Shown here piece after piece: positions 997 to 59,836 of a stretch of 59,836 nt of DNA (position 1 is its first letter; the number at the start of each line of letters is the position of its first letter). The notes under the pieces are model-generated. The model was not told where the DNA came from. It was given only the letters and a program-made list of their open reading frames with translations, and ran no database searches. The translations under genes and the position numbers were made by a program. This DNA is from a virus (lineage: Duplodnaviria > Caudoviricetes): positions 1 through 59,836 of IMG/VR virus record IMGVR_UViG_3300046791_000436. The stretch is one strand, 5' to 3'.

Positions 997-1443
997 ATGA
1001 CCCACGAAATCGCAGGGCGTGAGAAAGGCTCGCCCAAGCAACGCTGGCATGCGCAGAAGCGGGCCTTCCTCGGCAAGGTAGCCAAGCTGCTCGGTCTCAC
1101 GACTGGCCAGCGGACGATCTCGAGCAACCTCGGCGGCCCGGCTGTCGGGGGTGAGGTGAGCCTGCACACCGACACGATCTACTTGTGGCTGAAGTGCCCC
1201 ATCACGGGTTATGGCAGCGCAGATCCGACTGCTCACCTCTACGAAGGCGTGGGCATCGCTCGCCGCTGCAAGGGGCGCAAGGACTACACTGGCGAATGCA
1301 ATGTCAGCATCTTCGCGACCAACGCTGCGACACCCGAAAGGCTCGCCGCGTGGTTGCGTGCGGCCTTCCCGACGGAGGTCTACCAGGCTCGCCAACCGGC
1401 GACTGAACAACATCTGCCAAGGGCTGCGGGGCCATCCCGCTAA
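997..1443 (+). CDS. Hypothetical early phage protein
   Basis: 148-aa ORF with phage-like codon usage; SNLGGPAVGGEVSLH and RRCKGRKDYTG segments. Confidence 0.7.
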   Translation: MTHEIAGREKGSPKQRWHAQKRAFLGKVAKLLGLTTGQRTISSNLGGPAVGGEVSLHTDTIYLWLKCPITGYGSADPTAHLYEGVGIARRCKGRKDYTGECNVSIFATNAATPERLAAWLRAAFPTEVYQARQPATEQHLPRAAGPSR

Positions 1444-1897
1444 GGCCCGAGGTTCGACCGAATGCCCTCGTTGAAAAACGAGGGGTTAGATATCGGGCAG
1501 TGAGCAAATCGGTTGTTGCCCGTAGTCCTTGGCAGACCTTCTTCGGCTAGGCAGAGAAAAAGAGCACCCTACGAGAACTCAGGTTGCCTCTGAGGAAGAT
1601 CGGGTGCTAGTGGCTGCTCTGCCTAGCCGGTTTCTTTGACACACCGCCGAGAGTTGTCCCGCGACGGACATAAAAGCTCGACTCTCCTTCTTCCCCTTTT
1701 CCCGAAGAGCTTTTCTCTCGGCACTTTCTTCTCAAGCCGTCCTTTTTGGTGCTAGTGGGTGTTAGCTGTTGGAACCTCACAAAAGAGCAGCTGGCCAACA
1801 CAGCACGGCACCTTCTCCTGGCCCGCATCGCAGAACAGAGCGCCCGCGTTCGGTCGCTCGGACGGTCAGCTCTCCTGCGGTGCGGGCCTTTTCTTTC
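1413..1897 (+). ncRNA. Candidate structured RNA array (five stem-loop domains)
   Basis: Closing helices 1413-1430/1519-1536, 1544-1556/1617-1629, 1646-1653/1715-1722, 1736-1740/1805-1809 and 1820-1833/1875-1888. G-U pairs favour the + strand; linkers are pyrimidine-rich. Confidence 0.6.
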
Positions 1898-20382: not shown

Positions 20383-20425
20383 AGGGTCCGGAGTCTAGCA
20401 TGGGCTCCGGGCCCTCTTTCTTTTC
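20383..20425 (+). terminator. Intrinsic terminator-like hairpin
   Basis: AGGGTCCGGAGTCT/GGGCTCCGGGCCCT stem followed by CTTTCTTTT. Confidence 0.65.
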
Positions 20426-20441
20426 CCCAACCAAACGAAAC

Positions 20442-47677: not shown

Positions 47678-47722
47678 CATGGAGCCGTGACGATCCGAAC
47701 ACCGTCACGGCTCCATGTTTTT
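47678..47722 (+). terminator. Intrinsic terminator at convergent genes
   Basis: 15-bp perfect stem CATGGAGCCGTGACG/CGTCACGGCTCCATG followed by TTTTT. Confidence 0.7.
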
Positions 47723-56199: not shown

Positions 56200-57010
56200 G
56201 TAACGTTCCGGAACGTTCGGTCCCCACCGCATTATTAGAGGTTATACAATTCCGTTACCTTGCCAGGCTAGCAAGATTCAAGCCAGGAATTGTTCCTTGC
56301 CGATTCCTGGCCGACGGGCGAACGTTGACCGGCGTTCGGGCCCTACTAGGTGGAGGTAGCGCGCTGCGGCGCGCGGCAGACGAGTGTGCGGTGCGGCGCA
56401 CGGTTGGTTACGGCCAACCGTGCGCTGCGGCGCCTTTTCGGGAAAAAATCCCGAAAACAGGCTCGTTTACCTTCAGGCGCAAGACACAATTAGCTCCCTG
56501 GACTGGGTTTGGGACTGAAATCGCGACTCATTACGGTTCTCAGTCTATCCCGCGAGGTCGAGTTAATATTGTATTGCTAGGACTTAGCCCCTTACCAGGA
56601 CTGGACTTAGGTCTGCTGAGAGGGGGGGTCTGTCCGTTAGAAGTTCTACCTCTGTTTTACCGGGAGGTGGGACCGACCCCGAGTAAGGGTCAACTCTAAA
56701 AATAGGGGGTTGACTAACCGGCAGGATCTAGGTCCGGTTTTAACGTAGTCCCTCTGGGTCACAAGTAGCAATAAAACTGAGTTGAAACTTTTTACTGCAA
56801 CTTGCTCTCATCCTCTCCCCAACTACACGGCCGCCAAACGACTTACCGCAGGTAAAATGGACGGCTGTCAGTAGTAAAGAGACCACCTCAAGATTTGATG
56901 AAGACCGTGCGTTTCGGCATTTATTCGGATAATGCCAGACTTCGACCCTTCGTCTAAAACAATTCTCGTTCGTCTACTCCTACCGTGCCAGTGGCACAGG
57001 ACTTGCTACA
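56200..57010. other. Long, AT-richer divergent non-coding control region
   Basis: No credible ORF. Palindrome AACGTTCCGGAACGTT at 56202-56217, inverted repeat 56282-56311, several GGACT repeats. Confidence 0.55.
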
Positions 57011-57013
57011 GAA

Positions 57014-58280: not shown

Positions 58281-58349
58281 GCCTCAACACAGCAAGCCGG
58301 TCCCAAGCCCGGCAACGGACTCACCTCGAGTTCGGATGTGGAGGGAGGC
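58281..58349 (+). ncRNA. Twister ribozyme 1 (type P1)
   Basis: P1 GCCU/AGGC; CAA; P2 CAC/GUG; AGC; P4 GCCGG-UCCCAAGC-CCGGC; P5 hairpin; GA-GGG pseudoknot with loop CCC. Confidence 0.9.
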
Positions 58350-59308: not shown

Positions 59309-59417
59309 GGCACGTTTATCCCAGCCAGTGGAACCGCCGCAGATCCGAGTAGCCCTCGGAAACAGGACGGGAAAGCTGAAGGTCTCAAGCCCTTGTAAAT
59401 TGGAGAGAGGACGTGCC
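59309..59417 (+). ncRNA. Twister ribozyme 2 (variant, large P3)
   Basis: P1 GGCACGUU/GACGUGCC; P4 AAGG-UCUCAAGC-CCUU; GA-GAG pseudoknot with CUC. L1 reads UAU and P2 is imperfect. Confidence 0.65.
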
Positions 59418-59498: not shown

Positions 59499-59599
59499 TG
59501 TCCTAATGCGGCCCTCGAGGACTCGTGAGATACTCGGGGACGGTGACAAGCCCGTAAAACGTCCGGCCCGCGGGGTGACGAAAACGCAGAGTCAGGACA
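59499..59599 (+). ncRNA. Twister ribozyme 3 (type P1 with P3 and P5)
   Basis: P1 UGUCC/GGACA; UAA; P2 UGC/GCA; GGC; P3; P4 ACGG-UGACAAGC-CCGU; P5; GA-GUCA pseudoknot with UGAC. Confidence 0.92.
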
Positions 59600-59709: not shown

Positions 59710-59836
59710 TCTCCCGAAAGCAGTCCCTAAGAAGGCGCATGTATTGGAGCGTCGATGGGATCTCCCAATGCAGCCAACGACGGTGGTAAGCCCGTGCGTA
59801 ATGCAGAACCGGAGAAAAGACATGCTACAGATTCTG
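59710..59836. repeat. Terminal direct repeat / circular overlap (copy 2)
   Basis: Identical to 1-127. Confidence 0.95.
59761..59815 (+). ncRNA. Twister ribozyme 4 (minimal type P1)
   Basis: P1 UCUCC/GGAGA; CAA; P2 UGC/GCA; AGC; P4 ACGG-UGGUAAGC-CCGU; GA-ACC pseudoknot with GGU. Confidence 0.9.

Follow-up and report, generated by a model that had tools for sequence, protein, structure and literature searches.

A structured non-coding gap behind the early cassette of an uncultured soil phage as a candidate terminator or attenuator zone

The window analysed here is the complete 59,836-nt IMG/VR virus record IMGVR_UViG_3300046791_000436, the DNA of a tailed phage, and the element in question is the 467-nt gap at positions 1444-1910, which lies between an open reading frame (ORF) of 148 aa and one of 54 aa. 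A first-pass annotation of this region (1413-1897) had described five RNA domains joined by pyrimidine linkers. We tentatively favour reading the gap as a zone of tandem terminators or attenuation that includes a Rho-loading-like tract, and we give that reading slightly less than even weight. Several described systems invite comparison. In lambdoid phages, early terminators are overcome by antitermination, as at lambda tR1 and tL1 with N and nut, at tR' with Q, and through the put RNA of HK022. The early region of T7 carries RNase III processing hairpins, and phage operons punctuated by ribozymes or hairpins were reportedly described by Perreault and co-workers in 2011. The CI RNA of P4 and c4 of P1/P7 are leader-derived immunity RNAs, and Rfam holds a C4 family. 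Bacterial regulatory RNAs are usually built as an unpaired C/U-rich stretch upstream of a U-tailed terminator hairpin. For terminators themselves, the paper of Gupta and Pal 2021 (PMC8355165) reports that hairpins clustered less than 15 nt apart act jointly as termination units, that U-tails are often absent, and that 98% of termination sites fall within 80 nt. The RhoTermPredict paper (PMC6407284) defines Rho-dependent terminators as a 70-80-nt C-rich, G-poor untranslated stretch followed within 150 nt by a GC-rich hairpin.

The features of the gap and its borders, all on the + strand, are listed below with minimum free energy (MFE, in kcal/mol), fold z-score (z) and U-tail score where these apply.

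997-1443, + strand: upstream ORF of 148 aa, an open frame with a third-position GC content (GC3) of 0.76; third and last gene of the cassette 113-1443
1413-1536, + strand: D1, a 124-nt rod-like hairpin; MFE -67.6, z -7.30
1543-1638, + strand: D2, an extended hairpin and candidate intrinsic terminator (T1); MFE -46.8, z -5.67; strict stem-plus-tail site
1603-1616 (in D2) and 1748-1761 (in D4), + strand: 14-nt direct repeat GGTGCTAGTGGCTG, copies 13/14 identical
1645-1722, + strand: D3, a weak domain; z -2.86, 2 of 200 shuffles as good; tail score 1.22
1657-1754, + strand: rut-like tract from a composition scan, pyrimidine-rich, with more C than G and weakly folded
1733-1811, + strand: D4, unsupported as a folded domain; z -1.07, 29 of 200 shuffles as good; tail score 0.49
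1820-1896, + strand: D5, an extended hairpin and candidate intrinsic terminator or attenuator (T2); MFE -47.3, z -5.61; strict site
1900-1906, + strand: ribosome-binding site (RBS) AAGAGGA, preceding the 54-aa ORF
1911-2075, + strand: ORF of 54 aa, first gene of a long + strand block

Like lambdoid early terminators, the gap stands between what would be an immediate-early unit and the next gene block, whose genes we propose need read-through, and it has a C-rich, Rho-loading-like tract broken by hairpins. Unlike in those phages, no N-like or Q-like family and no boxA/boxB or put-like motif was identified here, and there is no sequence relation. The hairpins are stable, unrelated and placed between cistrons of a long early transcript, as are the RNase III hairpins of T7, and motifs resembling self-cleaving ribozymes occur in the same unit, as in ribozyme-punctuated phage operons. 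In contrast to both, five elements follow one another here uninterrupted by genes, and the relatives of this phage show neither ribozymes nor structured gaps at the matching position. Similar to P4 CI and P1/P7 c4, the gap is a long non-coding hairpin leader before an operon, with a short direct repeat (1603, 1748) as a possible target-site pair; unlike them, it has no Rfam match, C4 included, and the exact complement of the repeat is absent from the gap. The likeness to intrinsic and tandem terminators lies in D2 and D5, each a GC-rich stem followed by a U-rich tail on the sense strand, in a phage that has a textbook case of the class at 47678-47717. These stems enclose structured inserts instead of short loops, and D5 ends 14 nt ahead of the next start codon, which is attenuator-like and unlike an operon-end terminator. 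The hairpins are also closely spaced behind a stop codon, with 6 nt between D1 and D2, as in the clusters reported in PMC8355165, whereas D2 ends 187 nt past the stop codon, beyond the 80 nt given there.

Non-coding status and folding of the gap

The gap is non-coding. Each of the six frames of 1444-1910 holds 2-5 stop codons, and GC3 is at most 0.61 in any frame, as compared with 0.74-0.80 in the flanking genes, which bears out the view of the first-pass annotation that the region is untranslated. A 30-aa frame on the - strand (1579-1671) follows a purine tract, but at a spacing of about 12 nt; it has no further support and was discarded. In addition, the gap is structured. Folded as a 498-nt RNA, the + strand of 1413-1910 reaches -224.1 kcal/mol (z -7.12), with none of 100 shuffles as good, against a z of -3.03 and 1 of 100 shuffles as good for the - strand. 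Across a genome scan of 122 segments of 240 nt (mean z -0.91, standard deviation 1.47), the segment starting at 1441 ranks second with a z of -4.55, behind the convergent gene end at 47.5 kb.

Fold z-scores were also computed for each domain on each strand, using 200 shuffles for the + strand, with the following results:

D1: + strand -7.30, - strand -5.00
D2: + strand -5.67, - strand -5.95
D3: + strand -2.86, - strand -2.45
D4: + strand -1.07, - strand -0.04
D5: + strand -5.61, - strand -3.84

The folds of D1, D2 and D5 lie well outside the range of chance, that of D3 is borderline and that of D4 does not reach significance. The helix coordinates, G-U pairs, GAAA hairpin and five linkers of the first-pass annotation are all present on inspection of the sequence, and its picture of five helix-closed domains stands for D1, D2 and D5 but not for D4, which has no fold support, and only marginally for D3. 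On the - strand, D1 loses 12 kcal/mol and D5 loses 6, with D2 unchanged. These values support a preference of the structure for the + strand, on which the flanking genes are also read, and G-U pairs account for part of it.

D1 is built from an 18-bp closing helix with two G-U pairs, an 8 x 13 nt internal loop and, at its apex (1465-1484), an 8-bp hairpin of the form CCCUCGUU-GAAA-AACGAGGG; the helix can be extended to 26-nt arms at 81% complementarity. The final 30 nt of the 148-aa ORF double as the 5' arm of D1, and the stop codon at 1441-1443 thus falls within it. In D2, a base stem of 13 perfect bp (1544-1556 with 1617-1629), or 14 bp counting U1543-G1630, encloses a 60-nt folded insert and has UUUCUUUG directly on its 3' side. 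D5 has a 14-bp stem with one U-G pair (1820-1833 with 1875-1888) around a 41-nt folded insert, and UUUUCUUU lies directly 3' of the stem (linker 1889-1896). D3 is a closing helix of 7-8 bp around a small hairpin and a 27-nt pyrimidine loop; its 7-bp closing helix and D-arm-like hairpin brought a tRNA remnant to mind, which was rejected, as a T arm is missing and neither ARAGORN nor Rfam gives a match. When the stretch is folded as a whole, the closing helix of D4 is given up for a pairing of 1738-1745 with the RBS of the next gene (1899-1906).

The domains had been described as sharing no sequence, which is contradicted by D2 and D4, where both the 14-nt repeat and a second common word, a 9-mer at 1558 and 1781, are found. 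An 11-mer core of the repeat has five matches in the window at no more than one mismatch, as compared with 0.53 expected. Its closest complement (10/11) is at 728-738, where ORF 113-748 ends, on the same RNA strand; it could be a chance match, a long-range pairing partner or a target site.

The strand asymmetry bears on a DNA-level account, in which the gap would hold protein-binding or cruciform sites (origin, partition or packaging) or selfish palindromic inserts. D2 would suit such a role, given that it folds alike on both strands and has arms that are perfectly inverted over 13 bp; of the few long-range inverted repeats in the genome, three are grouped in the gap, and the 14-nt direct repeat is a possible binding site. 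Against these points, the + strand RNA folds clearly better owing to the G-U pairs of D1 and D5, the U-tails are one-sided, the cumulative GC-skew minimum is near 50-52 kb, away from the gap, and a region of 57% GC is not AT-rich. Furthermore, the arm pairs have no other copies in the window, the exact patterns of D1, D2 and D5 have no match in 2.9 million viral contigs, and those of D2 and D5 have none in the genomes of 185,579 species. We consider a DNA-level element highly improbable, and the same absence of further copies led us to drop the idea of a mobile element.

Stem-plus-tail sites, the pyrimidine tract and read-through

The favoured reading of the gap as a terminator or attenuator zone is built on the U-tails of D2 and D5 and on their rarity. 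U-tails were scored with a d'Aubenton-Carafa type formula, on which the genome median is 0.30 and the 99.9th percentile 3.24. The tail of D2 (linker 1631-1637) scores 3.51, within the top 0.05% of genome positions, and that of D5 scores 4.06, within the top 0.007%. For internal reference we used the clearest canonical terminator of the phage, which sits where the + strand block meets the - strand block and which D5 exceeds in tail score:

47678-47717, + strand: convergent-end terminator, a perfect 15-bp hairpin followed by UUUUU; tail score 3.73

In D2 and D5 the U-tail begins within 0-2 nt of the stem, which is not the case for D1, D3 or D4, and the sequence after D1 is U-poor. A strict site was defined as a contiguous stem of at least 14 bp enclosing no more than 135 nt, with a tail score of at least 3.5 starting within 0-2 nt. 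The genome holds four such sites on the + strand (D2, D5, 20383-20415 and 47678-47717) and none on the - strand, and 40 block-shuffled genomes hold none. Because the linkers at 1631-1637 and 1889-1896 abut their stems, they have the anatomy of intrinsic terminators and not of cleavage spacers. This speaks against the first-pass proposal of five discrete RNA genes cut apart at their linkers, as two of the domains are weak and two of the linkers are U-tails that abut the strongest stems. Termination, as opposed to cutting, could still yield discrete RNAs that end at D2 or D5.

The same tails weigh on a related account, in which the hairpins are processing and stability punctuation without termination. 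Here RNase III or RNase E landmarks would cut a long early transcript into pieces of differing lifetime with protected new 3' ends, and so complement the upstream twister-like ribozymes. The uninterrupted 18-bp helix of D1, with its extended arms, is near the length that double-strand RNases need, and four twister-P1-like motifs in the same + strand transcription unit make RNA cutting seem a habit of this phage. Processing leaves unexplained why top-ranked U-tails stand exactly at the 3' foot of D2 and of D5, and the uninterrupted row of five elements is unlike T7-type sites. We judge it to be rather unlikely.

The weak domains D3 and D4 coincide with the pyrimidine tract. The longest pyrimidine run of the genome, 22 nt, is at 1682-1703, and of the 92 pyrimidine runs of at least 9 nt in the window, five are within 1682-1899. 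A 78-nt segment at 1676 is 75.6% pyrimidine, the genome maximum (top 0.003%), and the 78-nt segment at 1668 (1668-1745) has a C/G ratio of 3.11, in the top 0.1% of such segments. The tract therefore has the composition of a Rho-type segment, being about 78 nt of untranslated, weakly structured RNA with more C than G, and D5 begins at 1820, 75 nt past that segment and well inside the 150 nt allowed for a pause hairpin in PMC6407284. The pause hairpins described there have loops of 4-8 nt, and D5 is far larger. Similar C/G values also occur inside genes of this phage, and the role of Rho here is a prediction; the layout of tract plus D5 as a Rho-dependent terminator is suggestive only.

We propose that the gap would work as a cis-acting + strand RNA boundary between the three-gene early cassette (113-1443) and the gene block from 1911. 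D1 would cap the last cassette gene, protecting the 3' end of its mRNA and possibly offering a double-strand nuclease site; as its 5' arm lies inside the ORF, translation up to the stop codon would open it. D2 would be the first intrinsic terminator, of an extended kind with a GC-rich 14-bp stem, a pre-folded insert and a U-tail. The roughly 100 nt of C-rich, G-poor, weakly folded RNA between D2 and D5 could load Rho, and D5 would be either a second intrinsic terminator or a pause and release point for Rho. Because only 14 nt separate the end of D5 from the start codon at 1911, there is no room for a promoter behind it, so the downstream genes must be reached by read-through, and for that reason the zone would act as an attenuator, setting how much, and perhaps when, transcription passes into the downstream block. 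That RNA polymerase stops in the gap, that Rho is involved and that antitermination follows are steps we infer from this anatomy. As U-tails are reported in PMC8355165 to be often absent at terminators, there is also room for D1 to contribute to termination.

The short interval between D5 and the start codon holds the RBS, and the U-tail of D5 can form a small local hairpin with it. Together with the pairing of 1738-1745 to the same site, this model-based pairing hints at translational damping as well.

Whether transcription could begin within the gap bears on a third account, in which one or more stand-alone or processed small RNAs are released from it. One example would be an RNA of about 250 nt running from behind D2 to the D5 terminator, with the CU-rich tracts CUCUCCUUCUU and CCUUCUCCU as anti-Shine-Dalgarno seeds that target host or phage mRNAs, and D1 might be a separate rod-like RNA. 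Such a molecule would have the usual build of a bacterial regulatory RNA, its CU tract is the most pyrimidine-rich segment of the genome, the genes of this phage use GGAG-type ribosome-binding sites, D1 is exceptionally stable (z -7.3), and a perfect TTGACA stands at 1636-1641, directly behind D2. No -10 element lies 16-19 nt from that TTGACA, however, and no sigma-70-like promoter was found in 700-2600, with a consensus that may not fit the host. In addition, Rfam, tRNA and tmRNA searches gave no match, no homologue was found in the collections searched, and for a Y-RNA-like D1 the phage encodes no TROVE/Ro partner. We hold the small-RNA account to be possible, though unlikely. A more specific form, in which at least one stable phage RNA not yet described comes from the gap, either D1 or the RNA of about 250 nt as an anti-Shine-Dalgarno mimic of the 16S rRNA end, strikes us as very unlikely. 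If it were true, the RNA of about 250 nt would bind ribosome-binding sites and reprogram translation during infection, and the stable RNA would come from the heavily processed early transcript to which the twister-like ribozymes also belong. Beyond that range, the next promoter-like site scored, and the best of the first 20 kb, is at 2630-2658 on the + strand, inside ORF 2440-2724, where TCGACA and TATAAT are spaced by 17 nt (11/12 match to sigma-70).

Several observations weigh against the terminator or attenuator reading. With loose thresholds the signal drowns, at 12 sites as compared with 3-9 in shuffles, and a simple consensus scan shows no genome-wide excess (17 against 15.3, 23 against 17.4 and 15 against 15.7 in shuffles) and picked only small sub-hairpins within D2 and D5; the terminator argument consequently rests on the strict class only. 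Membership of that class is no proof of termination, as the strict site at 20383-20415 overlaps a predicted start, with ATG 20400 in the hairpin loop, so that either that start or the terminator reading there is wrong. The inserts of D2 and D5, at 60 and 41 nt, far exceed the 3-10-nt loops of textbook terminators, and D1, the most structured element of all, has no U-tail (0.93) and is left with a generic role. A C/G ratio of 2.5 or more is reached at 15 places in the genome, and most of these are within genes. No Q-type or N-like antiterminator family was found in the phage, leaving the read-through step without a known agent; the promoter and terminator rules of the host are assumed, and a promoter inside the gap is possible. 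Finally, the 14-nt direct repeat in D2 and D4 is left unexplained. As a separate observation, a 15-bp hairpin followed by CUUUCUUUUCCCC lies at 20383-20428, in a 24-nt gap between two + strand genes.

Known families, relatives and the twister-like motifs

The first-pass annotation had proposed an Rfam scan and a homologue search as checks. The scan returned no family match at the gathering score anywhere in the window, and ARAGORN found no tRNA or tmRNA there. On 1300-2000, the best Rfam matches were unrelated miRNA, snoRNA and PreQ1 models at 15-18 bits (E 0.9-6.6), with no ribozyme family at E up to 10. Neither TROVE/Ro60 (PF05731) nor a reverse transcriptase (PF00078) was found among the phage proteins, and the positive controls matched, so that a Y-RNA-like or retron-like reading has no partner encoded by the phage.

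The homologue search likewise found nothing. By blastn, the region has no match among 50,697 phage records, and blastn and nhmmer against 22, 102 and then 183 related loci (1.0 Mb) gave only chance words of 11-13 nt. Single-sequence covariance models of D1, D2 and D5, which recover their own source at 156, 119 and 106 bits, match none of 29 related records (28 viral and one metagenome-assembled genome, MAG) and neither of two capsid relatives; in 100 further loci they gave only two marginal hairpins, at E 0.03 and 0.21. An exact search of the sequence collections gave no match for the apical 20-mer of D1 either. The first-pass annotation would count helices not kept in related phages as a refutation, and nothing alike was seen in the 31 related records or the 183 loci. 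Because the nearest relatives are very distant (no more than 69% identity for the 54-aa protein, and 61% for the capsid), these searches establish the absence of a homologue and not the loss of a structure. The element in the gap is an orphan.

The relatives of the 54-aa gene allow the matching position to be compared directly. Its upstream gap was examined in 78 of 102 loci and could be measured in 76, after dropping 8 viral loci with partial matches and 16 metagenome loci short of upstream DNA. The median distance to coding sequence is 67 nt, and the gap exceeds 400 nt in three of the 76. The eight largest gaps are AT-rich and unremarkable in fold (z +2.7 to -2.5). Rfam gave no match at the gathering score in 20 related loci and none at E of 0.05 or below in 9, and thus no ribozymes were seen there.

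The twister cluster that the first-pass annotation placed near the region corresponds to the following Rfam matches of 27-36 bits:

58281-58349, + strand: twister-P1-like match
59313-59413, + strand: twister-P1-like match
59500-59597, + strand: twister-P1-like match
59762-59814, + strand: twister-P1-like match in the terminal repeat (equal to 53-105)

All four fall below the gathering score of 67.2, yet their conserved core letters are aligned, so the cluster is seen as a set of core-aligned matches and not at Rfam's own threshold. They are found between small early genes and within the 0.8 kb of gene-free DNA that precedes ORF 113-748, and we treat them, from sequence, as plausible but unproven twister-P1-like motifs. 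Two of the four carry long inserts.

Their proximity, 1.3 kb upstream on the same strand, raises the prospect that the gap holds one or more new self-cleaving ribozymes or another new class of structured RNA. New ribozyme classes are said, in work attributed to Weinberg and co-workers in 2015, to have turned up historically beside known ones, making such proximity a lead, and D2 has two large internal loops. Against this, there is no ribozyme-family match even at the permissive E given above, D1, D2 and D5 are all simple unbranched rods, and there are no homologues from which a conserved core could be defined; the prospect is extremely improbable. Letters in D2 that look like parts of a hammerhead or hairpin ribozyme (CUGAGGA and CAGAGAAA), spotted by eye, are supported by no model and were set aside.

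If the terminator or attenuator reading is true, the gap would be an example of an orphan uncultured soil phage fencing off its early cassette with extended-hairpin terminators and a Rho-loading-like tract, with several twister-like ribozymes in the same transcript. The zone would be ordinary transcription-control punctuation, unusually elaborate, with no new principle. Such a case would help to annotate transcription units in phages and would be useful for terminator predictors, which overlook stems around long inserts. As it is without relatives in the searched collections, the element cannot at present seed an RNA family.

Genome setting and flanking genes

The first 127 nt of the record recur at 59710-59836. 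The phage encodes a family-A DNA polymerase, a primase-helicase-like protein, ThyX, a portal, a protease and an HK97-type capsid, and the identity of the capsid reaches at most 28.5% against cultured phages and 61% against IMG/VR contigs (2 loci). The public runs found to contain the phage sequence are three DNA runs, one of them possibly the source of this DNA, and no RNA run; they are labelled soil and rhizosphere. Contigs from two independent runs are 126-366 nt long at low depth, and none spans 1278-1925. Relatives of two of its proteins are spread over MAGs of many phyla and so single out no host. The + strand carries most genes, in a stretch that starts near 57 kb, crosses the origin and reaches 47.6 kb.

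Neither a Pfam or PHROG family nor a relative in viral or metagenome contigs was found for the 148-aa protein. By comparison, the 54-aa protein has relatives at 22 viral loci, in 142 metagenome matches (80 kept) and in one MAG, none above 69% identity, and the alignments begin at residue 1. The cassette 113-1443 has the look of an accessory insert equipped with terminators of its own. Within it, the 211-aa product of ORF 113-748 has a C-terminal half of Ala/Asp/Tyr-rich repeats (AAADAAD-like) and a weak, sub-threshold Imm5_like match (E 0.003).

A 15-nt inverted repeat, 14/15 complementary (1315-1329 and 1943-1957), brackets the gap from inside both flanking ORFs. If real, it would close the whole region as one long-range stem, though it may be due to chance, as its right arm encodes conserved residues of the 54-aa protein.

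Elsewhere in the genome, 786 gene-free nt at 56228-57013 separate divergent gene blocks and fold with a z of -8.27 on the + strand (20 shuffles). They contain a near-perfect palindrome (56388-56433) and a hairpin (56434-56462) flanked by U and A runs; the stretch is possibly the principal control region, including a bidirectional terminator.

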